Shown: positions 19,254-44,479 of the stretch, piece after piece | Position numbering within the stretch: position 1 is the first letter of the stretch | Layout: every line of letters starts with the position of its first letter | Virus record (IMG/VR): IMGVR_UViG_3300006467_000563 | Coordinates: 132,337 to 177,764 of that record | From: a virus | Lineage: Duplodnaviria; Heunggongvirae; Uroviricota; Caudoviricetes | Length of the DNA stretch: 45,428 nt | Strand: one strand, 5' to 3' | Notes under the pieces: generated by a model | Told to the model about the DNA's origin: nothing | The model's input: the letters and a program-made list of their open reading frames with translations, nothing else | The model's database searches: none | Program-made: the position numbers and the translations under genes

Positions 19254-19625
19254 TACACGACGTAAATGTTTGTCAGGAAATAGTAGGTCAACTTAACAGA
19301 CAATGCTGTTGAAAACCGGCCTCTTTTTTCCTGCCAAACTAACACGTTCGTGTTAAGTATGTGATTGACCTTTTTCAAGGTGTACCTTCCCCATTTTAAG
19401 TAACAAACGGTGATATAGATGATTAAGTTCTAATCTTTTTCTTTTAAACTACTGGTATATAAGGATTTATGAATTTTAGATTATATATGTTATTGCACTG
19501 CGTGCATATCACCTATTCTAAACAACTACCTTATGTAATAGTTACCTCCTGAGATTCGAAAACATTCGTCAAAAAATCTAAGTTTTTCCAAAAAAAGAAA
19601 AAATAAAATAATTGGCTTTCTGGGG

Positions 19626-19654
19626 TTGACATGTGAGTCTAATTGTGATAGGAT
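19626..19654 (+). promoter_or_regulatory. Sigma-70-type promoter, probably leaderless transcript
   Basis: TTGACA-17-TAGGAT, ATG 6 nt downstream, no SD. Confidence 0.7.
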
Positions 19655-19660
19655 ACACAT

Positions 19661-33651: not shown

Positions 33652-33816
33652 GTGACCAACATTTCACAATTAGGCAGGTGCGAACCATGTTACTATAAAA
33701 GTTTCCCGGCTAATCTGATGTTTCGGGATGGATACTGGGCACAAGTAGACTATTACACAGAAATAGGAATTCATCTAGGAGTTAGAATAGATTACGGATA
33801 TGGATGGATTTATTAG
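33652..33816 (+). CDS. Small hypothetical protein (54 aa, GTG start)
   Basis: Not in ORF track; AGGAG SD; last gene before terminator. Confidence 0.45.
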   Translation: MTNISQLGRCEPCYYKSFPANLMFRDGYWAQVDYYTEIGIHLGVRIDYGYGWIY

Positions 33817-33844
33817 TTATGCTGTGACATTTTGTTTCGAGTTG

Positions 33845-33876
33845 GGGCACCTAGATTTTTTTGGTGTCCTTTTTTC
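33845..33876 (+). terminator. Intrinsic terminator closing the dense plus-strand block
   Basis: GGGCACC-loop-GGTGTCC then T run. Confidence 0.65.
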
Positions 33877-34106
33877 TTTGCCGACTTAAGTGCGGGTAGT
33901 TAGCAAATGACAATTAAGTTTGAAGTGCCGAGGCGTGAGATAAGGCCCCCCGGTTTTTTGACCAACCTGAACAGGTTCCCACCTGAACGTAAAACCACCC
34001 CCACCGAACTTGTGAACAAATGAGCACATCGGCAGGGGATTTGTAAACCTTGTTTAGTAAGTGCTGCTTAATAAATGTTGTTTAAATAACGTTGTTAAAT
34101 ATTGGG

Positions 34107-34222
34107 GTGGACAAACTACTGAATTCGCGTCTGTGCTCGATTCTCCGCAAATCCGATACAATACCCATGAAACTATCGGAATGCATTAGGGGCGATTCTA
34201 TGAGATTCTAGCCCCATAGCAG
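34107..34222 (+). repeat. ~110 bp dispersed non-coding element, copy A
   Basis: Shares TCGCGT, TCCGATACAATRCCCRTGAA and ATTCTATG..ATTCT.AGCCCCATA blocks with 37028-37145. Confidence 0.8.
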
Positions 34223-34369
34223 AGGTACACTAAACTATTTTGGAATATTTTTTGATTTTATACCGTTTTAGGCTTTTTTAGACTTTTTTTATCCCGATAG
34301 GTTGCTAATATCTTATCAGAGGTTAATCAATGCGGTTAACACGAAACTATCTTTTAAGGAGTTGAGACA

Positions 34370-34597
34370 ATGAGAAAAGCACATGCTAACTTCCACGCCC
34401 CAGAGCCAGTTCAAACCAAACGGACACCAACGGTTGAAGAGTTTGACAAAATGTTATCAGATGCCTTTCAGTTTGCTTTCATGCCTCAAGATGAGGACGA
34501 GTTAATCGAGATGCTCACAGGGAGCGAATCACGCGTAGGATTGAATCGGCAAATTGAAATCATGGAAGAGCACTTCGGTGCTGTTGAGAACTGGTAA
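34370..34597 (+). CDS. Hypothetical early protein
   Basis: TAAGGAG SD. Confidence 0.6.
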   Translation: MRKAHANFHAPEPVQTKRTPTVEEFDKMLSDAFQFAFMPQDEDELIEMLTGSESRVGLNRQIEIMEEHFGAVENW

Positions 34598-34603
34598 GCT
34601 AAT

Positions 34604-34636
34604 GGGGGCCATGACTGGCTCCCCTCTTTACACTTT
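34604..34636 (+). repeat. Inter-gene hairpin element, copy 1
   Basis: GGGGGCCA-TGAC-TGGCTCCCC TCTTTACACTTT. Confidence 0.85.
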
Positions 34637-34650
34637 GAAAGAATAAAACA

Positions 34651-34800
34651 ATGAAACAACACAGTATTGAATGGTGGGTACAATTCATCAGATTCCATTA
34701 TATTCCAGCGGTATACTCACCCCAACGTAATTGCATTAGAGCAGTTGAGCGGTATACTACGCGTGATGATAGAGCAGCAGTTAACTGTAACGTCGATTAA
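34651..34800 (+). CDS. Small hypothetical protein (49 aa)
   Basis: Not in ORF track; MKQHSIEWWVQFIRF..., directly behind hairpin element. Confidence 0.45.
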   Translation: MKQHSIEWWVQFIRFHYIPAVYSPQRNCIRAVERYTTRDDRAAVNCNVD

Positions 34801-34848
34801 CCATTAGACGGAAAAGCCATTGATTCATGGCTCGGATATTAACCACTA

Positions 34849-34881
34849 AGGGGGCCATGACTGGCCCCCTCTTTACACTTT
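34849..34881 (+). repeat. Inter-gene hairpin element, copy 2
   Basis: AGGGGGCCA-TGAC-TGGCCCCCT CTTTACACTTT. Confidence 0.85.
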
Positions 34882-34893
34882 GGAAAGAATGCA

Positions 34894-34986
34894 ATGGATT
34901 GCAAAAAATATCTTCTTATCGTATGGTCCCTGATGGCCATTGCCACAATCTCAACAATCGTTTTTTTTGAAATGGTGTTATCATGA
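34894..34986 (+). CDS. 30 aa single-TM peptide
   Basis: MDCKKYLLIVWSLMAIATISTIVFFEMVLS; ATGA overlap with next gene. Confidence 0.45.
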   Translation: MDCKKYLLIVWSLMAIATISTIVFFEMVLS

Positions 34987-35237
34987 CAGTAAAGGAAGAA
35001 ATCAGAGTTACAAGGCCCGGAAAGTACCCACCAACAACGCCAAGAGAGGGGAGACAAGGCCACTATTTCTATGGCAATAACCTAGTTGAGTGTATTATGA
35101 AAGCTCAGCGTAAGTTCGGTGATGAACTAGTGGACGTCGAATACAATGGGTGGTATATCGGTTCAATCACACAGGCCCAGCCAGAACACAAATTTCCAAA
35201 ACAATCGGTTAATGATTTTGTGGGCTGGTGCCCATAA
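34983..35237 (+). CDS. Hypothetical early protein
   Basis: Ends just before hairpin copy 3. Confidence 0.55.
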   Translation: MTVKEEIRVTRPGKYPPTTPREGRQGHYFYGNNLVECIMKAQRKFGDELVDVEYNGWYIGSITQAQPEHKFPKQSVNDFVGWCP

Positions 35238-35243
35238 CTAACA

Positions 35244-35276
35244 AGGGGGCCAGTCATGGCCCCCTCTTTACACTTT
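35244..35276 (+). repeat. Inter-gene hairpin element, copy 3 (loop inverted)
   Basis: AGGGGGCCA-GTCA-TGGCCCCCT CTTTACACTTT. Confidence 0.85.
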
Positions 35277-35292
35277 AAAAGGAATTACCACA

Positions 35293-35811
35293 ATGAAGAA
35301 ACTAGTCGATATGGTCCCAGTTCGCGACTACTGCCAAAATATGGTTTTATCAGCAGATGAAGCTAGAACACTACGACAAAACGTGCGTAACATGTATTGC
35401 GTATGCAATCTGCAGGAATTAGAATCTGCTCTTATCCATCATAAGGAAAACCCAACAATGCGGGGAAATGAGGAAACGATTGCATTCATTCAAGAGTTAA
35501 TTGATGAGTGTAATCTGGATTTATCAGGGCGGATTATCCGGTATGTTGATTATACCGTATTGTCTGAGCTGCTGAGCCACACAATGCGAATGCAACGTAT
35601 GTTATTCGGAGATTCCTTCATGACTGAACAGGAATTGAGAGGGGCCTTATCAGACCCTTACGTATACTGTGAAGATTATTTACAGTCGGCACTGGAAAAC
35701 ATGTTTCTGCATCACGTACGCGTTGGTGGTCGTGAACGTCAAACCAAATTCTCTGATATCCATATTGACCACACTAAACAGATAGTAACAATCTGGCTTG
35801 CTATCAAGTAA
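35293..35811 (+). CDS. Hypothetical early protein
   Basis: AAGGA SD, 172 aa. Confidence 0.6.
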   Translation: MKKLVDMVPVRDYCQNMVLSADEARTLRQNVRNMYCVCNLQELESALIHHKENPTMRGNEETIAFIQELIDECNLDLSGRIIRYVDYTVLSELLSHTMRMQRMLFGDSFMTEQELRGALSDPYVYCEDYLQSALENMFLHHVRVGGRERQTKFSDIHIDHTKQIVTIWLAIK

Positions 35812-35828
35812 TCAACAACAATAACCAA

Positions 35829-35860
35829 AGGGGGGCCATATGGTCCCCCTATTTGCATTT
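35829..35860 (+). repeat. Inter-gene hairpin element, copy 4 (diverged)
   Basis: AGGGGGGCCA-TA-TGGTCCCCCT ATTTGCATTT. Confidence 0.7.
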
Positions 35861-35869
35861 GAGGATATC

Positions 35870-35995
35870 ATGAAAACATTATCGTATTTTGTAGCTCTGC
35901 TCTTATTCTCCCTATGCTCAGTTCTATTCTGGCATGCTCTTATATCGATTCTAGGGACATCTCTAAACGTTGGGGTTGATGGTCGGCCATTATGA
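35870..35995 (+). CDS. 41 aa membrane peptide
   Basis: Not in ORF track; GAGGA SD; MKTLSYFVALLLFSLCSVLFWHALISILG... Confidence 0.5.
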   Translation: MKTLSYFVALLLFSLCSVLFWHALISILGTSLNVGVDGRPL

Positions 35996-36153
35996 GGGAT
36001 TTAATCATACACGTTGCTGCTGTGCTCGCTATCGCTCTTATATCGGTTCTTACAATCCGTTGTGCGGTTTCATTGTGGAAACATGACGATGTAAAAAGGT
36101 TGATTGAAGAGGGTAACAAGAACGGCGGCACTACTGCACATCTAAACATGTAA
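35992..36153 (+). CDS. 53 aa membrane peptide
   Basis: Not in ORF track; ATGA overlap; MRDLIIHVAAVLAIALISVLTIRC... Confidence 0.5.
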   Translation: MRDLIIHVAAVLAIALISVLTIRCAVSLWKHDDVKRLIEEGNKNGGTTAHLNM

Positions 36154-36370
36154 TATACGCCTGTTCAGGTAGTATACATCTGTCTACTAGGGTGACAAAT
36201 AGTCACCCTTTTTTTACGTATACACATATCCACTACGCGACCGCCGCCAGACCGCCGCCCGCCGCCGCGATAACTGCACACTTGTCAACTGCCCGCCCGT
36301 ACATGCATACAGGCCAGACCGTTAGCCATTTGTTCAGTGCTTGTCAGTCCACGCTGTTCGTCCGTCCAAG

Positions 36371-36456
36371 AAACGGGTTTGTAACGGGTTGACAAACCCG
36401 TTTGCCCAGAATGCACATAGTTAGCCGTTTTCCTATTTTACCTAGCTTGCCGGGGG
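36371..36456 (+). repeat. Array leader copy 1 (hairpin, GCACATAGTTAGC, G run)
   Basis: AAACGGGTTTGT...ACAAACCCGTTT hairpin; homologous to 39151-39235 and 41237-41318. Confidence 0.75.
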
Positions 36457-36975
36457 AATTACTTAGGAAAGTTTAGAAAGTAATTCGGTTCCCGAACCGC
36501 AGGAGTTTGTTAATAAACCTTATTAATTAATTCGATACCGCGACCGCAGGACATTTCTTAAGAAACTTTATTAAATAATCCGGCGTGGGAATTTCTTAGG
36601 AAACTTTATTAACTAACTATGTAATTAGTAAAGTTAATTAAATAATTCGGGAGCGGCAACGGAAAAGTTATTTAGGAAAGTTAATTAAGTAAATCACCTG
36701 TTCACCAAGTGTACGCATGGGCAATTTGTTAGGAAAGTTTACAAACTAATGAATTACTTAAGAAAGTTAATTAAGTATTGAATTACTTAAGAAACCTTAG
36801 AAACTAATAATTACTTAGGAAACTTTATAAACTAAGAAATTTCTTAATAAACATTACTAAATAATTGAACATTGTACATGTATAGTGTACACAAATTTTT
36901 TTATTTCTGTTTTCGTGTACAAACCGTTATATGTATACTACCGGCCAATTACTTAATAAACGTTATTATATAATG
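36457..36975 (+). repeat. Array 1: 12 copies of degenerate 29 bp quasi-palindrome AATTACTTAGGAAA-S-TTTATTAAnTAATT
   Basis: Unit starts 36457, 36504, 36552, 36590, 36619, 36666, 36723, 36752, 36781, 36809, 36838, 36947; GC-rich spacers or abutting. Confidence 0.9.
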
Positions 36976-37027
36976 CAGCAAAAAATGTGCCAAACTCACG
37001 TGAGCAAATTTCATGCCAAAAAAACTA

Positions 37028-37145
37028 GTGTACAAACACCTGTAAATCGCGTGTATGGGCAAACTATTTGTTTTCCGATACAATGCCCGTGAATTCATTA
37101 TAACTCAATACAGGGCATTCTATGCATTCTCAGCCCCATAACGGG
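37028..37145 (+). repeat. ~110 bp dispersed non-coding element, copy B
   Basis: Colinear with 34107-34222. Confidence 0.8.
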
Positions 37146-37246
37146 TGACCAGTGCACAAGTGTGAACAAAATTCCTTTTATATTTATATAGTATATAACT
37201 ATTTCCGGGAATCTTGCTAAAAATAAAAAAACGATTAAAGTATCTA

Positions 37247-37274
37247 TTGCAATCTGCCGGGGATGTGATACAAT
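37247..37274 (+). promoter_or_regulatory. Sigma-70-type promoter with A-rich UP element
   Basis: TTGCAA-16-TACAAT with TGn; homologous to the promoter at 39504. Confidence 0.65.
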
Positions 37275-37344
37275 GCAATGCATGATGAGGTTAACGCAAA
37301 CAAGTTAACTAAACCTGCAAGCGGTTATAACCCGCATGCATGAC

Positions 37345-37356
37345 GTTCTTTGACAA
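37345..37356 (+). promoter_or_regulatory. boxA-like antitermination element
   Basis: GTTCTTTGACAA in a structured 5' leader. Confidence 0.5.
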
Positions 37357-37414
37357 TTTGGTAAAATCTTGAGCCGTAGCGTCCGTTCACCTACTCTTTT
37401 TTGGAGGATGTGCT

Positions 37415-37732
37415 ATGCTGCACACAAGTATAGTTGGCATGAAAAATGGTCTGATTGATATGCTGGACGCGTGTTCAGAAGACAATCTGGCCGAAACATG
37501 TGAACAAGTAATCAGTGCTATACGTCTGACGTCTGGCATGTGGGTTGAGTGTTCATACGGATACAAAGCCGTAGAATTGATGGACAAAATCAACCTAATG
37601 TGTACAGAAGTCATCGAATCTGGTGTACACTATATGAAACGTGACCGTCTGAAAGCCGTGCGGAGTGCATCTGTACAGCTAAGTCAGTTCATGTTCCGTG
37701 CACACCAAAAAAACATGTACGCATGTGTATAG
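37415..37732 (+). CDS. Hypothetical early protein
   Basis: GGAGGA SD. Confidence 0.6.
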   Translation: MLHTSIVGMKNGLIDMLDACSEDNLAETCEQVISAIRLTSGMWVECSYGYKAVELMDKINLMCTEVIESGVHYMKRDRLKAVRSASVQLSQFMFRAHQKNMYACV

Positions 37733-37803
37733 TCTGACCAGTTCGCCAGTCTGGAGAAAACTGGCAATCTTCAAAATACTTTTAAGTTTTTTCTAAAATG
37801 GGG

Positions 37804-37832
37804 TTGACATACAATAGTCAATAGACTATAAT
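37804..37832 (+). promoter_or_regulatory. Perfect consensus sigma-70 promoter
   Basis: TTGACA-17-TATAAT. Confidence 0.9.
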
Positions 37833-37881
37833 CTCCTTAGTCAAGTCACTTTTTTAAACATGCTTTTTAGGAGCAAACACT

Positions 37882-38757
37882 ATGAACGCTACTCAAGAAA
37901 TCCAGAACAAAGTCCGCGAAGCCTTCAATTTCTCTGTTGTCAAGGCCCCCCTGTTTGGACCAGACAACACTCGTACAGGTCTGTCAGGTCTGTTCCGCGA
38001 CGATGATTTTTCACTGGTGGGAAATTCATCTGTGAAGGACCGATACACGCCGCACACTACGGAAGACGTGGTTGCAATCGTCGATGCCGCAAGTGAGGCA
38101 TTTGACGGGGACATTGATATCCAGTGCAATTTCAAGCATGGACATTACGTCACCATCGCACCAAGTCTGGATTATCGTAAACAGATTTACGGTACTGACA
38201 TCGTATTCCCCCGGCTGCTGGTTAACGCATCCTACGATGGACGTGCATTTCGGGCAACTATGGGCATGTATCGTGATATGTGCCGAAACATGATGATGAT
38301 GCGTCAAGTGAACCAGACAAGTCAGGCAATCCGCCATACGTCCGGCTTGCGTGACAAAATGGATGAACTTATCCAGACCTTTTCGGTTCTCCGCGAGTCA
38401 TGGGACAATATCGGGGACGCAATCGACCACATGAACGAACGTAAGGTCGATGTACGCCAGTTCATTATGGGGCTGTACGGTACTCCGAATGAAAATTCCA
38501 GCAAGTCGGTTACCATGCATGAAAAACGCATGGAAGCCATTCTGACGCGGCTCCGCGATGAATCCCGCAAGTGCGGTCTTGATAACCCGCTGGTAACCGG
38601 CGAAACTAACGGATGGCTGATGTACAATGCCGTTCAGGGATACGCTCAACATGATTCCATCCGGCGTAAGGATACGACTGATTTTGAGAAAATCCTGTCG
38701 AGCCATGACGATAAATTCGTGAAGGAGGCAGAACGGCTGCTGCTGGCCGCTGTTTAA
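37882..38757 (+). CDS. DUF932-family phage/plasmid protein
   Basis: VKDRYTPH, LLVNASYDG, YRDMCRNM, IRHT, WLMYNAVQGY match the DUF932/TIGR03299 pattern. Confidence 0.8.
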   Translation: MNATQEIQNKVREAFNFSVVKAPLFGPDNTRTGLSGLFRDDDFSLVGNSSVKDRYTPHTTEDVVAIVDAASEAFDGDIDIQCNFKHGHYVTIAPSLDYRKQIYGTDIVFPRLLVNASYDGRAFRATMGMYRDMCRNMMMMRQVNQTSQAIRHTSGLRDKMDELIQTFSVLRESWDNIGDAIDHMNERKVDVRQFIMGLYGTPNENSSKSVTMHEKRMEAILTRLRDESRKCGLDNPLVTGETNGWLMYNAVQGYAQHDSIRRKDTTDFEKILSSHDDKFVKEAERLLLAAV

Positions 38758-38763
38758 CCCTCT

Positions 38764-38793
38764 GGGGGGAGAAATCCCCCCTCTTTTCTTTTC
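38764..38793 (+). terminator. Intrinsic terminator
   Basis: GGGGGA-GAAA-TCCCCC then T-rich tract. Confidence 0.7.
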
Positions 38794-38819
38794 TTCATGT
38801 TTCTATTGAGGTTTTACCG

Positions 38820-38975
38820 ATGAACCGATACACAAAATACGCTCGCTCGTTTGGCTGGTCTGGCATGCCAGTTTACGTCGTCAATGGTCTGGTCTATTTC
38901 AATTACCGCATGCGGGGTGAGGGAATCGACTGGTTTGAGTTTATGGATGATGTACGTGGGGGCCGAACTAACTAA
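38820..38975 (+). CDS. Small hypothetical protein (51 aa)
   Basis: Not in ORF track; GAGGT SD; MNRYTKYARSFGWSGMPVYVV... Confidence 0.55.
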   Translation: MNRYTKYARSFGWSGMPVYVVNGLVYFNYRMRGEGIDWFEFMDDVRGGRTN

Positions 38976-38993
38976 GTAATCAAGATTGTATTT

Positions 38994-39027
38994 ACCGTCT
39001 ATCCCTTTTGGGGTAGGCGGTTTTTTT
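38994..39027 (+). terminator. Intrinsic terminator
   Basis: ACCGTCTATCCC-TTTT-GGGGTAGGCGGT then T run. Confidence 0.85.
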
Positions 39028-39150
39028 ACGTACATAGAAAAGCGATAGACGGGCCTATACGCGTCCGCTTTGAATTGCTGTCCCTTTTATCATGCCAGAC
39101 CGCAAACGCTCGCTACGCTTTAATGACGGGCCTATCTGGTGACCTTTGAA

Positions 39151-39235
39151 ACATGGCTTGTCACGGCTTGACAAGCCGTGTAGCCTGTATGCACATAGTT
39201 AGCTAGTTAGTCGTTTTTGTGTTCGCCGCAGGGGG
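39151..39235 (+). repeat. Array leader copy 2
   Basis: ACATGGCTTGTCA...TGACAAGCCGTGT hairpin, ATGCACATAGTTAGC, GCCGCAGGGGG. Confidence 0.75.
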
Positions 39236-39457
39236 AATTTGTTAGGAAAGTTTATTAAATAAGTACTTAATTAAGAAAGTTTAGAAAGTATCTCCAGAGC
39301 TGTTGCTGCAAGTTTACTTAGGAAAGTTTACTAATTAATTCGAGTCCGACTGTGGAATTATTTAGGAAAGTTTATTAACTATCTAATTACTTAGGAAGAT
39401 TTATTAAGTAATTTCGTTCACCAAACGGAATTTGTTAGTAAGGTTTCTTAACTAAGT
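39236..39457 (+). repeat. Array 2: 6 copies of the 29 bp quasi-palindrome
   Basis: Unit starts 39236, 39265, 39312, 39356, 39385, 39429. Confidence 0.9.
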
Positions 39458-39503
39458 GTACATTCCCATTATTGAGAAATATAGAAAAACGATTAAAGTA
39501 GAC

Positions 39504-39531
39504 TTGTAATCCTGTCGGGGCGTGCTATAAT
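39504..39531 (+). promoter_or_regulatory. Sigma-70-type promoter
   Basis: TTGTAA-16-TATAAT with TGn; upstream AAAAACGATTAAAGTA shared with the 37247 promoter. Confidence 0.7.
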
Positions 39532-39569
39532 GCATATATCACTGGAACATAACACTAAAGGATAAAATC

Positions 39570-39731
39570 ATGGATAAACCATTACTTGAGGTAAAGGGCT
39601 TTTTTGGCCAGTGGCTGGTCTGCTGTTCAGGTGCTATCCTGTTCATGGAAGTGTACGAACGTGAAGGGTATACGCTCAGCCATGATAGCTCTCTCTCTAC
39701 TATGAAAGATTTACTTTTAGCAGGATTCTAA
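39570..39731 (+). CDS. Small hypothetical protein (53 aa)
   Basis: Not in ORF track; AAGGA SD; MDKPLLEVKGFFGQWLV... Confidence 0.55.
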   Translation: MDKPLLEVKGFFGQWLVCCSGAILFMEVYEREGYTLSHDSSLSTMKDLLLAGF

Positions 39732-39733
39732 AC

Positions 39734-39997
39734 ATGGAAATTGTTGGTGTACTAGTACACGACTGGGTTGACGGGGAACGTGTTCAGAATGATTCCTTGA
39801 CTAAAGTATGGGGAATCGGTTCAAGTCGTGATGTAAGTATCGTCGAAGCGGAGCAATATTTTGTGTCGCTCCTGAACAAGCACGACCTTGATAGTGCTAT
39901 TGTAGAGTATTATCTTGAAAAGGGTTTTTACTACTGTCCAAAAGCGGAGCGGAGATACTTTTTTATCAATTGTAAGCTGGAAGAGGTTACTTCTTAA
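39734..39997 (+). CDS. Hypothetical early protein
   Basis: Coupled ORF. Confidence 0.55.
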   Translation: MEIVGVLVHDWVDGERVQNDSLTKVWGIGSSRDVSIVEAEQYFVSLLNKHDLDSAIVEYYLEKGFYYCPKAERRYFFINCKLEEVTS

Positions 39998-40026
39998 AAA
40001 TGCAGAAAAAAAGATAGGGGGCGGGT

Positions 40027-40055
40027 TTGACTCTCCCCTATCACTCTGCTATACT
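40027..40055 (+). promoter_or_regulatory. Sigma-70-type promoter
   Basis: TTGACT-17-TATACT with TGn. Confidence 0.75.
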
Positions 40056-40093
40056 TCAATCATACAATTAACCATCTAATAAGGGGTAAGTAA

Positions 40094-40288
40094 ATGGCTC
40101 GTGTTACACTGAAAACAGTATTGTATCACGCTGAGCAGTGGGGTGTTCAGGTGCAGGAAATTGGCCATCGTCGCTGGGAAGTGTCCCATCCTAATGTACA
40201 GGGCATGACTGGCGAAGTGGACAATGTACAGGACCTGTGGAGCGAAGTATACGACTTTGCAAGAATGGCCGGAAAAGTGGAGGAATAG
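40094..40288 (+). CDS. Hypothetical early protein
   Basis: AAGGGG SD, own promoter. Confidence 0.6.
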   Translation: MARVTLKTVLYHAEQWGVQVQEIGHRRWEVSHPNVQGMTGEVDNVQDLWSEVYDFARMAGKVEE

Positions 40289-40290
40289 GG

Positions 40291-40319
40291 TTGACGCCCT
40301 ATTTTTTCCCTGCTATACT
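40291..40319 (+). promoter_or_regulatory. Sigma-70-type promoter
   Basis: TTGACG-17-TATACT; near copy of the 40027 promoter. Confidence 0.75.
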
Positions 40320-40358
40320 TCAAGCATAACTGAAACATTTCTCATAAGGGACAAAGTA

Positions 40359-40700
40359 ATGGCGTTTGAGTATACAGATACTTCTATCAAGATTGCAATT
40401 GACCGTGATTCGTCTGTTAAGACTCATCAGATGTTTATCCATCACAGCGGCGGTTCTCGCGAAAAGGCATACCTGTTCTGTGTTGAATTGTTTCATCCAG
40501 AAACTCTGTGCACACATGCTCCTATCTATGTTCTGGCTGAGGACACCGAAGGAGCTATCCATCAGGCAACCTGCGTAAATGGTGAATTTGATAGCAAAAT
40601 GTATGATGGTGGTGGTGAATTCAGCACGACTGTATTAAAGGAATCCTCAGTAAAGCGTCTCCATCTGGCCATTCGCGGCTGGGGTGGTCAACAGTTCTAA
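40359..40700 (+). CDS. Hypothetical early protein
   Basis: Start moved to MAFEYT behind AAGGGA and the promoter. Confidence 0.6.
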   Translation: MAFEYTDTSIKIAIDRDSSVKTHQMFIHHSGGSREKAYLFCVELFHPETLCTHAPIYVLAEDTEGAIHQATCVNGEFDSKMYDGGGEFSTTVLKESSVKRLHLAIRGWGGQQF

Positions 40701-40803
40701 CATAACTCTATGTCCAAAGGGTACTAGGTAAGGTTTAAAGAGGAAGAACGCCATCTTCCCGCCCGCTTTCTTCATTTAGTAATTCTTGATTTAGGAGAGA
40801 GAC

Positions 40804-41154
40804 ATGTTATCACCAGAAAGAGCAGCACTACTGCGAAAAAATAAACCAAACATTGCAGCATATCAAAAACGGGCAATCGGTGATTCTGCTGATATGTTCG
40901 ACTGTAAATACAAATACGAAGATGGTTCTGTCTGTGCTGCGTCGGCGTGCTTCACAGATGCGGAGAGAGAACTGGTTTTCCTGATTGACAATGATGCACC
41001 AATAGACGAACATCAACGCACACTGAAGTTATCAGACGATGAATTGACCACACTAGGAAATCTGCAAAGTGCTCATGACGCATATATGCAAAACGGATGC
41101 AACAAGAATTTCAATCACTTCGATGAACTAGTGAAGGATGTATTAGGCGAATAA
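40804..41154 (+). CDS. Phage early protein (CxY..DG..CA...LQxxHD family)
   Basis: CKYKYEDGSVCAASAC...LQSAHD; paralog of 43793..44122. Confidence 0.6.
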   Translation: MLSPERAALLRKNKPNIAAYQKRAIGDSADMFDCKYKYEDGSVCAASACFTDAERELVFLIDNDAPIDEHQRTLKLSDDELTTLGNLQSAHDAYMQNGCNKNFNHFDELVKDVLGE

Positions 41155-41172
41155 TACAAACAACAACAATCT

Positions 41173-41207
41173 ATCCTCTTGCCTGTAATGGGTAAGGGGA
41201 TTTTTTT
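41173..41207 (+). terminator. Intrinsic terminator
   Basis: ATCCTCTTGCC-loop-GGTAAGGGGAT then T run. Confidence 0.8.
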
Positions 41208-41236
41208 ACGCCTACTCTTTTTTCTCTTGCTGAATA

Positions 41237-41318
41237 GCCGTTGTCATGCGATAACCAACGGCATAGCGATTCCGCAGATAGTTAGCGAGTTAGCAGTATT
41301 CTATCTGGCGGCGGGGGG
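41237..41318 (+). repeat. Array leader copy 3
   Basis: GCCGTTG...CAACGGC hairpin, GCAGATAGTTAGCGAGTTAGC, GGCGGCGGGGGG. Confidence 0.7.
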
Positions 41319-41525
41319 ATTTTCTTAGGAAACTTTACTAACTAATTCGGTAGGCACAACGGCGAAATAATTAGGAAACCTTACTAACTAAATATGGACG
41401 ACGTAGGATTTATTTAGGAAACTTTAGAAAATAAATCGAGAGTGAGAAAGCAAAAATTGTTAGTAAACTTTATTAACTAATTTTGTGAACGCATGTATTT
41501 TTTTAGTAAACTTTCTTAAGTACTG
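41319..41525 (+). repeat. Array 3: 5 copies of the 29 bp quasi-palindrome
   Basis: Unit starts 41319, 41365, 41408, 41454, 41497; spacers 14-17 nt; orphan copy near 41885-41913. Confidence 0.9.
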
Positions 41526-42164
41526 TTCATTGATGCACTTATGGAAAATATATGTACACTGAACGTTAGCCACTAGTGAAAATCCCATCTTTTTATCGTT
41601 TCTATATGTTGCTTTTGTGGCGAAAGTATCAAAAATTGCTGTTGAGTGTATTCGGGGTATCCCTAGTATACAAAAAACATATAAACCGCCTATACATGTT
41701 GAAAAAACGAAATGTGCAGGTGTACGAAAAATGGATGATTTTTGCCTGAAATAGTGTCATGGGTTAACTATTTTCTGTGATTTGCCCCATTTTTTCCTGC
41801 TGAACATTTGAAAAGTGAACATTTTTTTACTCGTGAGGACCTGTCTATGGTGATTTTTTGATGAGTAGTGTACAATTTTTGGAGGATTTTTTAGTAAACT
41901 TTAGAAAATAACAAGCGTTTGGTGCATAAATAGTAGTGTTTCGGTAGTCAAGAGGTGTGGAAGACTGTATTTCAAAACTATACCCCCGTTCCCAAGCGTC
42001 AGCTTGTGTATAGTATTCTTTATAATTATATTATGTATAGTTCTTATATGTATAGGTGATAAATCTATGTATATAGTGCCCTATTTTCACTACTGTTCAG
42101 TGTATTATTAAATAATCAGGAAAGTATATAAATCGTAGGCTTAAATCGATATTTGTACACATAC

Positions 42165-42257
42165 GCTAGAAGGCTCTCAGAGGCGTTTTAATGCATTATT
42201 ATTTTCTACGGTATAATCTACGGACTAAGCAGAGAAACGCACACACAAGCGAAGCAG
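42165..42257 (-). repeat. ~110 bp dispersed element, copy C (inverted, diverged)
   Basis: Aligns to reverse complement of copy A: GCTAGAA..CTC..AGA..CG..TAATGCATT...GGTAT...CGGA...GC.GAGAA.CG..CACA...GCGAA..CAG. Confidence 0.6.
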
Positions 42258-42359
42258 GGAGCCAGAAACAATACAACAACGATAACGAGATAATTCTAGC
42301 TTATTTATTTATTAGCAGAGAAAAAAGGGCGAATAATTCACAATTCTTTCTGATTAGGC

Positions 42360-42388
42360 TTGACAATAGATTGTATGGTTGGTAAGCT
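42360..42388 (+). promoter_or_regulatory. Sigma-70-type promoter, probably leaderless transcript
   Basis: TTGACA-17-TAAGCT, ATG 6 nt downstream. Confidence 0.7.
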
Positions 42389-42394
42389 ACCATT

Positions 42395-42625
42395 ATGAAA
42401 ACACGAGACATCACAACAGAAGAGAGAACCGAGCTGGATACGGCTTGGAATAAATATCACAAGACTGTAGATGAACTGCACAAAAATCAGCCTAACGACT
42501 GGCCAAAAAAACTTGATGCCGCGTATGCTGAATATAAAGAAACCATGAATGCATTAAACATCATATCTACTCTTGCAGGTTACAGGGTAAAAATTGAATG
42601 TTCAGAAAAATCCTCTGCTGGCTAG
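42395..42625 (+). CDS. Hypothetical early protein
   Basis: Directly behind promoter. Confidence 0.55.
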   Translation: MKTRDITTEERTELDTAWNKYHKTVDELHKNQPNDWPKKLDAAYAEYKETMNALNIISTLAGYRVKIECSEKSSAG

Positions 42626-43792: not shown

Positions 43793-44122
43793 ATGAAATT
43801 ATCACAAAAGAGTAGCGAAAATTTTCGTAACAATCTGCATAAAATTGCCGCATTGAACGGTAATAGATGTATGATAGGTGAATTATCCAGACGGTATGAA
43901 GATGGTACAATTTGTGCTGGCATGGCTTGTCTATCAGAATCTGAGCAAGATGTAGCAGCAGAAGACAACGTGGGCACAATGTCTTCATATGCAAGACGTA
44001 ATAATTTTTCAGCGGATGATACTTTTATCATAAATGAATTGGAAAATATACACGATGATGTGATGCTTGGTGATACTCTAGTGTCTGCACTACTTCAATC
44101 AATCGGCAAGTATTTAGCATAA
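43793..44122 (+). CDS. Phage early protein, paralog of 40804..41154
   Basis: RYEDGTICAGMACLSESE...LENIHD. Confidence 0.6.
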   Translation: MKLSQKSSENFRNNLHKIAALNGNRCMIGELSRRYEDGTICAGMACLSESEQDVAAEDNVGTMSSYARRNNFSADDTFIINELENIHDDVMLGDTLVSALLQSIGKYLA

Positions 44123-44242: not shown

Positions 44243-44479
44243 ATGGATGAGATGCTAGAATACAGGGCAGAAATGACCGATACTTTCGGTGGTGAAGCGA
44301 ATTACTGTTGGGTTGATAGAACGGCTGGCAAGAAAAGGAGCGAACTTGCAGTCGTGAGGGAAGTAAAAAAGGCTTTCGGGATTACTGGTTTACGATGTGC
44401 TCGTGAGGATTATATGGATAGTATTGTATTACGTCCATACGGCATGAATATTATTGTTTTTATCAATTTTCAGTTCTAG
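44243..44479 (+). CDS. Conserved phage early protein (TDTFGGEANYxWV family)
   Basis: Recognisable motif; start uncertain because TTGAAA-17-TAGAAT overlaps it. Confidence 0.65.
   Translation: MDEMLEYRAEMTDTFGGEANYCWVDRTAGKKRSELAVVREVKKAFGITGLRCAREDYMDSIVLRPYGMNIIVFINFQF

Follow-up and report, generated by a model that had tools for sequence, protein, structure and literature searches.

Anatomy of four non-coding modules

The 45,428-nucleotide stretch analysed here (the window) contains four inter-operon non-coding gaps, at 33817–34369, 36154–37414, 38976–39569 and 41155–42394, which we number as modules 1–4. They are 553–1261 bp long and total 3648 bp, in agreement with the original prediction that more than 3 kb of ordered non-coding DNA lies in four gaps. 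The block at 34–41 kb has a higher GC content and a lower GC skew than its surroundings, and Tad2-like anti-defence paralogs are encoded in the adjoining early region. All features described below lie on the + strand, other than the hexamer-rich tract of module 2, which carries no strand assignment.

Module 1 follows an ORF ending at 33816 and starts, as read from the sequence, with a terminator-like hairpin and T-run after the preceding operon (33844–33876). A TAGTTAGC leader box (33897–33904) is followed by a G-run and about three degenerate units (34035–34100), which match 9–10 of the 12 core positions and fall below our profile threshold. The stretch that comes next (34100–34290) comprises the ~110-bp element, with a GATACAAT -10-like box at 34155, and, after the element, T-tracts about 10 bp apart (34238–34290). 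This module had been described as degenerate, and its only units are indeed degenerate ones.

Modules 2, 3 and 4 each open with an intrinsic terminator (36189–36218, 38994–39030 and 41173–41210, respectively) carrying a common T7-ACG tail, as anticipated for three of the gaps. In module 2 the terminator is followed by short CCGCC-rich direct repeats (36239–36268; the modules show a 37-fold enrichment of CGCCGC) and by a leader consisting of a 12-bp hairpin with a TGTCAYGG-type motif (36371–36403) and, 3' of it, a ATGCACATAGTTAGC box (36411–36425). A G-run and an array of 11 co-oriented units (36455–36870), together with a solitary unit (36945–36975), occupy 36452–36975, and a tract rich in TGTACA, GTGTACA and TGAACA extends over 36866–37035. 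The ~110-bp element (37056–37165) begins with a promoter-like TGGGCA-17-TACAAT, and the operon promoter, TTGCAA-16-TACAAT with a TG (37247–37274), lies ahead of a 105-aa gene at 37415.

The leader of module 3 (39152–39211) combines a hairpin (39152–39180) with a double TAGTTAGC/TAGTTAGT box, and leads to a G-run with six co-oriented units (39231–39460) and an operon promoter, TTGTAA-16-TATAAT (39504–39531). Module 4 has a corresponding leader (41237–41295), with a 7-bp hairpin (41237–41262) and a double AGTTAGC box (41279–41295), then a G-run with five co-oriented units (41313–41525). Its conserved non-coding tail (41530–41913) contains helically phased A/T tracts and ends with a solitary unit (41885–41913). 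A promoter-like TTGACA-17-TAAGCT, again read from the sequence, precedes the operon that follows (42360–42388), whose ATG at 42395 lies near +1; our promoter scan missed it because its -10 hexamer matches only three of six bases.

Comparison of the modules upholds most of the proposed part list. Every module has the TAGTTAGC box and the G-run, TGTACA and GTGTACA are 6–15-fold enriched in the modules, and promoters are found ahead of the short operons that follow. The predicted hairpin occurs in modules 2–4 and is not universal among relatives, while the ~110-bp element, expected in three gaps, is clear in modules 1 and 2 and is represented in module 4 only by a weak inverted copy.

A conserved quasi-palindromic unit

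The unit measures 29–31 bp and has the core TTAnnAAA-n-TTTnnTAA, with AATT on one flank and TAATT on the other. With up to two mismatches allowed, the window contains 25 matches to the core where chance predicts 0.32 ± 0.53, and none of 100 shuffles reached that number. A profile search of the whole 177.8-kb genome located units solely in three clusters, at window positions 36455–36975, 39234–39460 and 41317–41525, and at 41885; the array of module 1, at 34.04 kb, is a degenerate relic. The invariant core positions mirror each other around an A3-N-T3 centre, an arrangement that, judged by its symmetry, would be typical of sites for dimeric proteins. All 24 window units have the + strand orientation, co-directional with the genes, as do most units scored in relatives; a minority of weaker units of the relatives score slightly better on the - strand, which is to be expected because the unit is a quasi-palindrome.

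The arrays had been proposed to consist of 29-bp units. Arrays do exist, although they are not strict 29-bp tandems, since the unit-to-unit spacing is bimodal (28–31 or 42–49 bp). The spacing is also out of helical phase. Among the 44 unit-to-unit distances below 70 bp, 16 have no room for a spacer and the rest mostly have one of only ~13–20 bp; these spacers are GC-rich and homologous between lineages. The mirrored core positions 4 and 14 carry a G-T combination in 10 of the 24 window units, which pairs only in + strand RNA, and a GGA motif is not kept, many units reading AAGAAA or AGTAAA. A search of 185,579 species genomes returned five single chance matches and no array, with a strict pattern that a diverged repeat could escape. 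None of these genomes has the unit as a repeat under this pattern, which disfavours a decoy copying an abundant host repeat.

No near relative of this phage was found among 50,697 phage records, and its terminase and portal match Bacillus siphovirus proteins of only 22–34% identity, with no T5-like matches. Units are carried by three other lineages whose flanking proteins are 40–65% identical to those of the window, or unrelated, and the unit consensus is identical across the four lineages (n = 57 units). The relatives also share the order of parts, namely terminator, leader boxes, G-run, co-oriented units, TGTACA/TGAACA tract, sigma-70 promoter and short operon, which supports the proposal of a conserved, ordered cis-acting system. 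Arrays are 70–81% identical at the DNA level where blastn detects no flanking genes. Between the window and the relative L125, the module-4 tail is 89% identical compared to 76.5% for the stretch containing a DUF932 gene, and an ORF within the tail region (41576–41749) shows weaker conservation of its protein (67%) than of its DNA. Array number and length vary freely between lineages, and a mosaic of genes lies between the modules.

Spacing of the leader boxes is fixed at 37–38 bp, and promoter heads lie at a fixed 22–25 nt upstream of the first unit core. For example, two heads in the relative L158 and one in L126 are consensus TTGACA-17-TATAAT promoters placed 24–25 nt 5' of the first unit core, each followed by a common short initial transcribed motif. 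Most leaders have a TATCTT-type -10-like hexamer at the matching distance; those of modules 3 and 4 fit the pattern poorly. By sequence comparison, the window leaders are putative promoters. The module-4 tail shows a 10.5-bp AA/TT periodicity that was equalled in none of 200 shuffles, and is predicted to be curved; helically phased A/T tracts also occur in L126 and in module 1. RNA folding was not significantly better than that of shuffles for the array on either strand (Z = -1.2 and -2.1), the module-4 tail (Z = -0.6) or the ~110-bp element (Z = -0.7). An Rfam search matched no family, and no terminator or processing signal was seen 3' of the arrays.

One relative records a rearrangement within the arrays. 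L125 corresponds to module 3 up to and including the first unit, beyond which it follows module 4 from the third unit on, and it therefore lacks the equivalent of window positions 39262–41406. Recombination of a module-3 unit with a module-4 unit would leave exactly this junction, which demonstrates that the arrays have served as homologous-recombination points for the loss or gain of whole operon cassettes, a role absent from the original prediction.

Comparison with known phage systems

The closest analogues of the modules are the T5 first-step-transfer (FST) repeat regions, the PeSLs (promoter-early stem-loops) of T4 and the stoperators of L5. In the FST DNA of T5, a large lytic phage, several untranslated repeat regions of 0.2–1.2 kb lie between short pre-early and early operons; they contain direct and inverted repeats and palindromes, are better conserved than most ORFs and have been proposed to act as an injection stop signal (Davison, bioRxiv 10.1101/866236). 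The modules described here are likewise ordered non-coding repeats between early operons and more conserved than the adjacent early ORFs. They show no sequence relation to the T5 regions, however, and are four homologous copies rather than three different regions. The paired DnaA boxes (TTWTNCACA) of the T5 regions have no counterpart in the 3648 bp of the modules, compared to 18 matches to this box in the whole genome. In T5-like (Demerecviridae) genomes the regions lie in the long terminal repeat of the end that enters first; the present record is linear and has no end repeats.

PeSLs are conserved cassettes of T4-type phages that couple a strong sigma-70-like early promoter to a stem-loop terminator, which within hyperplastic regions bound small early genes that are non-essential, and whose recombination with one another deletes, inserts or swaps the intervening genes (PMC2839356; PMC4122927). 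The terminators that open modules 2–4, the promoters that close them, the variable genes in between and the equivalent junction in L125 all recall this arrangement. In contrast to PeSLs, which are short (a promoter and one stem-loop), the modules reach 553–1261 bp, with leader boxes, unit arrays, hexamer tracts and curved DNA as further parts, and recombination here was unit-to-unit rather than promoter-to-promoter.

Stoperators of the cluster A mycobacteriophages (L5, Bxb1, TipsytheTRex) are many intergenic copies of a repressor site, oriented relative to transcription, which act beyond the promoter on RNA polymerase that is already elongating; they are asymmetric, 13–14 bp long and singly dispersed throughout the genomes of temperate phages with a known repressor (PMC9283540, PMC6550527). 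The window units resemble them in number, intergenic location and orientation with transcription. They differ in being 29–31 bp quasi-palindromes gathered into 3–4 arrays, with no repressor candidate among the families searched: HTH, RHH, HU, ParB and sigma families were not found in searches of the early region and genome, and the matches listed gave no sign of lysogeny genes.

The anatomy of the modules (promoter head, repeated palindromes, AT-rich units and curved DNA) is also compatible with that of an origin. Iteron or promoter-dependent origins, such as lambda ori and T4 oriF/oriG, have repeated palindromic sites for the initiator, or else an AT-rich element for unwinding, near a promoter, are activated by transcription from that promoter and have bent DNA nearby. 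The modules differ from these in having no adjacent initiator gene, a variable number of arrays, GC-rich spacers and a location in the accessory early region.

Possible functions of the modules

If the arrays were transcribed, their product could itself be functional. Each would then be a gene for a non-coding repeat RNA, with a G-rich 5' end and 5–12 AU-rich copies of the unit serving as linear motifs that might, for instance, soak up an RNA-binding protein or a nuclease of the host as a sponge or decoy, perhaps in anti-defence. This we consider doubtful, though it draws on the consensus promoters aimed into the units in L158 and L126 with their shared initial transcribed motif, the TATCTT-type hexamer in most leaders, the co-orientation of the units with transcription, the G-T combinations that pair only as + strand RNA and the Tad2-like paralogs nearby. 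Against it, folding is no better than that of shuffles on either strand and Rfam gives no match; transcripts would continue into the operon, because nothing after the arrays would terminate or process them, and the mirrored positions and A3-N-T3 centre lack an obvious RNA rationale, because a 1-nt loop is impossible. A CsrA-type sponge in particular is unlikely because the GGA motif is not kept, and a ToxI-like array of a type III toxin-antitoxin system, or a phage mimic of one, which would consist of strict tandem repeats of about 34–45 nt folding into pseudoknots ahead of a terminator and a toxin gene, was rejected on the variable spacing, the lack of a fold signal and the lack of a terminator after the arrays. 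Transcription of the head might alternatively serve replication, the modules being redundant origins of the promoter-plus-unwinding-element or iteron type, in which an RNA–DNA hybrid anchored at the G-run opens the AT-rich array and the palindromic units bind a phage initiator. The iterons bound by the lambda O protein are palindromic too, the several copies would be redundant, with one dispensable as in L125, and a conserved core replication protein would explain the constancy of the unit, this genome having replication proteins of its own (a DnaE-type polymerase, a DnaB-like helicase, SSB and RecA). We nonetheless regard origins as unlikely, given arrays that vary freely in number and length, lie in a variable accessory region distant from the replication genes (genome 60–100 kb), have GC-rich spacers and contain no DnaA boxes, and given the absence of a candidate initiator gene. 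Taken as one class of explanation, in which the active agent is a product or an R-loop and not a repressor, a new class of phage repeat RNA or multi-copy origins fired by transcription is conceivable but on balance improbable; promoter head, G-run and polar units would then make up a single transcription unit. On the RNA side, the product may for example be a decoy, expressed early, that neutralises a conserved RNA-binding factor of host defence or decay.

The repeats might instead have no function of their own, having spread with cassettes as PeSL-like terminator–promoter boundaries, the arrays persisting through continual homogenisation by recombination and tandem duplication. The direct junction between arrays, the mosaic gene content, the deviating GC content and skew of the 34–41 kb block and the PeSL precedent (PMC2839356) point this way, but the same invariant positions in 57 units from four lineages are hard to explain without selection, homogenisation within a genome leaves the identity of consensus between genomes unexplained, and the leader boxes hold their fixed spacing; we find this quite unlikely. 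Control of DNA entry or of another early DNA transaction, with the modules as FST-like stops in a staged injection, would fit the general T5 picture of conserved untranslated repeats between short operons and the polarity of all window units. It is very unlikely for a phage whose terminase and portal are not T5-like and whose modules have no DnaA-box cluster. Four stops inside 8 kb would be without precedent, and L158 joins the right contig end to the left one, their genes being adjacent there, so that a location near a physical genome end is unsupported. CRISPR-like mini-arrays, or mimics of a host CRISPR repeat acting as RNA anti-CRISPRs, are suggested by the conserved leader, the polarity of the ~29-bp repeats and their short GC-rich spacers, and are scarcely credible here: a genuine array, with unique spacers of about 30–40 bp, is close to refuted by the many distances without a spacer, the shortness of most others and spacers that are homologous rather than unique, the Pfam matches listed include no cas-like family, and the chance matches in species genomes offer no repeat to mimic under the strict pattern used.

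We tentatively favour, while holding it to be far from assured, a cis-regulatory boundary that acts at the DNA level, with the units as putative operators that gate the early operons and double as sites of cassette shuffling. It is consistent with the unit's symmetry, its constant consensus amid diverged or unrelated proteins, the conservation of the module-4 tail above the adjoining gene, the lack of RNA fold or family signals, the phased A/T tracts, the part order kept in relatives, the fixed heads and stoperator-like co-orientation (PMC9283540) and the array-to-array junction of L125. Several observations sit less easily with it. The searched families yielded no binder, the units are not helically phased, and for a symmetric dimer strict polarity would be unnecessary. 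Dedicating a promoter to a roadblock is an unobvious design, which an RNA product or transcription-activated origins fit at least as well; promoter function of the leaders is moreover read from sequence, with modules 3 and 4 fitting poorly. The gate could not be the sole control of the operons, because each retains a promoter of its own beyond the array.

Read as such a boundary, the four gaps would be copies of one lineage-specific module set between short early operons, in a hyperplastic, cassette-like part of the early region of a novel, uncultured phage of ~178 kb, which presumably uses the host RNA polymerase. Transcription of the upstream operon would end at the intrinsic terminator and begin anew at a promoter-type head. 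In the window this head, a leader bearing AGTTAGC boxes and a TATCTT-like -10, is probably weak or dependent on an activator, and in some relatives it is a consensus sigma-70 promoter. Transcription would then run through the array of co-oriented units and on to TGTACA-type boxes, curved DNA or both, ahead of the operon's own sigma-70 promoter. We postulate that the units are operators of a conserved, dimeric, sequence-specific DNA-binding protein, supplied by the host or encoded outside the examined stretches, and that an occupied array would act as a polar gate or insulator which, much like a stoperator, controls if transcription from upstream passes into the next operon, and at what time.

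Module anatomy and genome setting

The early region of the window contains the four non-coding gaps that had been predicted, measuring 553, 1261, 594 and 1240 bp (modules 1–4, at 33817–34369, 36154–37414, 38976–39569 and 41155–42394). Their proposed homology holds, module 1 being a degenerate copy. With up to 2 mismatches allowed, the 17-bp core of the repeat unit matched 25 times in the window against 0.32 expected, and a whole-genome search with a profile built from 24 units located units only in the modules. The full unit spans ~31 bp, with the consensus GGAATTAC-TTAGGAAAC-TTTATTAA-CTAATT, and is quasi-palindromic around a central A3-N-T3; consistent departures from symmetry make it polar, and every unit in the window is oriented as the genes are. 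Units either abut (28–31 bp from one to the next) or are separated by short GC-rich spacers (42–49 bp). Ahead of every array stand a G-run, one or two AGTTAGC boxes and a TGTCAYGG motif, the last kept 37–38 bp upstream of the first AGTTAGC box, and the terminators opening modules 2–4 have a T7-ACG tail in common. TGTACA-type hexamers are enriched 6–15-fold in the modules, and the operons that follow carry sigma-70 promoters. The ~110-bp element, which had been assigned to three gaps, was recovered in modules 1 and 2 and convincingly nowhere else; its opening sequence is promoter-like, of the kind seen in the operon promoters. The modules are very probably real, selected cis elements.

The phage record (177,764 bp, of which the window is the final 45.4 kb) encodes a DnaE-type polymerase, a DnaB-like helicase, SSB, RecA, ribonucleotide reductase, ThyX and many glycosyltransferases, along with 26 tRNA genes, a tmRNA and a tRNA with a CUA anticodon, a potential amber suppressor. 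The tRNA cluster and the tmRNA (tag AKQFAIAA) lie outside the window, at genome positions 48505–61329 (G000:C1), and a tRNA search of the window found no tRNA genes; its long ORFs are open under table 11, so no recoding is evident. A megablast search with the region found no match, and hence no near relative, in 50,697 phage records, and the terminase and portal reach best identities of only 22–34%, to Bacillus siphovirus proteins. From 17.7 kb to the window end every gene is on the + strand, in a block that holds Tad2-like paralogs in its first 16 kb and the modules in its last 12 kb. Between 34 and 41 kb the GC content is 0.41–0.49, compared with ~0.36 in the flanking early DNA, and GC skew is much lower; these values for 34000–41000 are consistent with a mosaic or imported origin. 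Family searches of the whole genome gave no match for Sigma70_r4, ParB or HU, and none for a T7-type RNA polymerase, the latter a weak blank since the control for that family also matched nowhere. As no phage RNA polymerase or sigma factor was found and the early genes have promoters of the sigma-70 type, the phage presumably depends on the host enzyme for transcription.

Relatives and exchange between arrays

Relatives were found through homologues of the DUF932 gene sited between modules 2 and 3, which yielded near-identical strains (L128–L130), a 91%-identical lineage (contig L125) and a 56%-identical lineage (L126/L127). A fourth lineage, L158, came from a search of the JGI metagenomes with a strict 27-nt unit pattern, where it was the only true relative among 21 matches. 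The same unit forms arrays in all lineages, with a single consensus across the total of 57 units, and the order of parts, whose loss in relatives would have counted against the original prediction, is the same in every one. Neighbouring genes are mostly different among the lineages and the shared ones are 40–65% identical; the arrays are 70–81% identical as DNA where blastn detects no flanking genes. L125 and the window share 89% identity over the non-coding tail of module 4, as against 76.5% over the stretch including the DUF932 gene, and the sole ORF in this tail is less conserved at the protein level than at the DNA level. Such conservation of order and arrays indicates that the modules are under selection or exchanged as units. 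Some module parts also occur outside the four gaps, as in the gap at 19254–19660, where a 43-bp non-coding stretch upstream of a promoter is 86% identical to L125:1022–1064, part of the L125/L126 module.

Other routes to relatives were unproductive. Searches of IMG/VR with DUF932 and with the terminase gave none, and the strict unit pattern gave 3 chance matches there and 5 in GTDB genomes. In IMG/VR a loose 17-nt pattern returned single chance matches only, and a leader-box pattern returned one, inside a gene. The ~50%-identical DUF932 homologues belonged to an unrelated temperate phage and to contig L131, the latter lacking units. Unrelated phages of the SU10-like and P22-like kinds, which have no units, carry homologues (47–62% identical) of the 78-aa early gene at 44243–44479 in their own early regions; this small gene seems to travel widely. 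DUF932 homologues are likewise present in many unrelated phages and elements, and the copy in the window (37882–38757) is preceded by a perfect TTGACA-17-TATAAT promoter at 37804–37832.

One relative records a rearrangement within the arrays. L125 runs colinearly with the window from the DUF932 gene up to and including the module-3 terminator, leader and first unit, then resumes as module 4 from the third unit onward, so that it is without window 39262–41406 (the rest of array 3, its promoter, the whole 39570–41154 operon and the head of module 4). This junction is the product expected of homologous exchange between units of two arrays, and parallels the way in which PeSL cassettes recombine in T4-type phages (PMC2839356). 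On its left, L125 has a gap that looks like L126 and not like the window, which makes the region a mosaic. A paralogous family of acidic proteins of 109–120 aa with conserved Cys residues is encoded at 40804–41154 and 43793–44122 of the window and at L126:9346–9708; in the window and in L126 alike, the module with the long curved tail comes directly after a gene of this family.

Promoter heads, structure and candidate function

In two cases in L158 and one in L126, the array is headed by a consensus promoter (TTGACA-17/18-TATAAT/TAAAAT) whose -10 hexamer lies 24–25 nt before the first unit core, and the same 11-nt initial motif follows these promoters. Heads of this kind are absent from the window. 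Most leader-type heads instead place TATCTT, TATTTT, TATTCT or TATCCT 22–24 nt ahead of the first unit core (in one L125 leader, L125a, 16 nt), with the AGTTAGC boxes where a -35 or activator box would be; no good -10-like hexamer was found in module 3. From this shared position the leader and the consensus promoter look interchangeable, which suggests that the leader is a weak or activator-dependent promoter. AGTTAGC was not found upstream of genes elsewhere in the genome, ruling it out as a genome-wide promoter, and an integron attC or core-site reading of GTTAGC was rejected because the sixth base misfits GTTRRRY and no integrase was seen. A near-consensus minus-strand promoter at 36965–36993 (TTGGCA-17-TATAAT, 11/12 positions), not seen in relatives, points leftward into the module-2 array and could yield an antisense transcript. 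At 42360–42397 a promoter-like TTGACA-17-TAAGCT stops 6 nt short of the ATG (42395) that starts a 76-aa gene, whose mRNA may therefore be leaderless.

The arrays fold no better than shuffled sequences on either strand (z -1.2 and -2.1), nor do the module-4 tail (z -0.6) and the 110-bp element (z -0.7). Rfam gave no match in the modules at gathering thresholds or at E≤1, the would-be pairing positions of a unit hairpin show no covariation among the tabulated units, and the invariant centre, A3-N-T3, is unable to serve as a stem that closes a loop. A CsrA sponge was also ruled out, as GGA is not conserved and the flanking stem lacks covariation. The module-4 tail has a 10.5-bp AA/TT periodicity reached by 0/200 shuffles, a pattern that marks it as predicted curved DNA, and L126 and module 1 have tracts 10–11 bp apart; a phasing test of A-tracts on the arrays themselves found no helical periodicity. 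Curved DNA often lies upstream of strong promoters and at origins. Folding no better than that of shuffles, the blank in Rfam, the lack of covariation and the curved DNA together favour a DNA-level function for the modules as a whole.

We read each gap as a probable boundary module in which a terminator is followed by a promoter-type head, then by operator-like units in a polar array, and last by curved DNA with hexamer boxes and the operon's own promoter. As the most economical mechanism we tentatively propose that a conserved dimeric DNA-binding protein would occupy the units, and that the occupied units would gate or insulate transcription entering the next early operon, much like the polar action of stoperators (PMC9283540). 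Pfam and PHROGs searches found no DNA-binding family among the early-region proteins, and targeted family searches found no binder of the units either. The strict polarity and the dedicated promoter heads leave room for an RNA product or a transcription-dependent mechanism; of these, a transcribed repeat RNA is rather unlikely. Transcription-activated or iteron origins are unlikely. On the boundary-module proposal the repeated units would supply homology for cassette shuffling incidentally; that they are recombination scaffolds with no function of their own seems quite unlikely. Entry control of the T5 type is very unlikely: the modules have no DnaA boxes and the contig ends are joined in relatives. 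Here L158:2600–4250, compared with genome ~1000–2200 and ~18050, sets genes of both record ends side by side, so that in relatives the ends adjoin and the early region runs on from one into the other. CRISPR-like arrays are scarcely credible given the unit spacing and the homologous spacers. The suggestion that the arrays act as decoys mimicking a host repeat also appears unlikely, as none of 185,579 species genomes carries the unit as an abundant repeat.

Relation to known systems

Large lytic phages carry kilobases of conserved non-coding DNA in their early regions, with a role that is unsettled even in T5, decades on. The untranslated repeat regions of T5 pre-early DNA (bioRxiv 10.1101/866236) are the nearest described phenomenon, alike in type of location, excess conservation and a function that is likewise open, but different in sequence, parts and phage lineage. 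PeSLs share the role of promoter-terminator boundary, although they are far simpler, and stoperators (PMC9283540) resemble the units in polarity and multiplicity but not in size, symmetry or clustering. With these partial likenesses, the modules fall under conserved non-coding boundary/repeat modules of phage early regions, outside every named family.

The modules thus provide a second example, unrelated to that of T5, of conserved early-region non-coding DNA, and one whose design is much cleaner. It has four homologous modules and a single strongly conserved unit, along with promoter heads that look interchangeable and recombinants that arose naturally, and these features allow the question to be tested by simple means. 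Should a phage or host protein bind the units, the two would represent a new regulator-operator pair for the early-to-middle switch; should the units act as RNA or as origins, they would constitute a new class of element. Either way, the modules show exchange of accessory, partly anti-defence early gene cassettes between phages.
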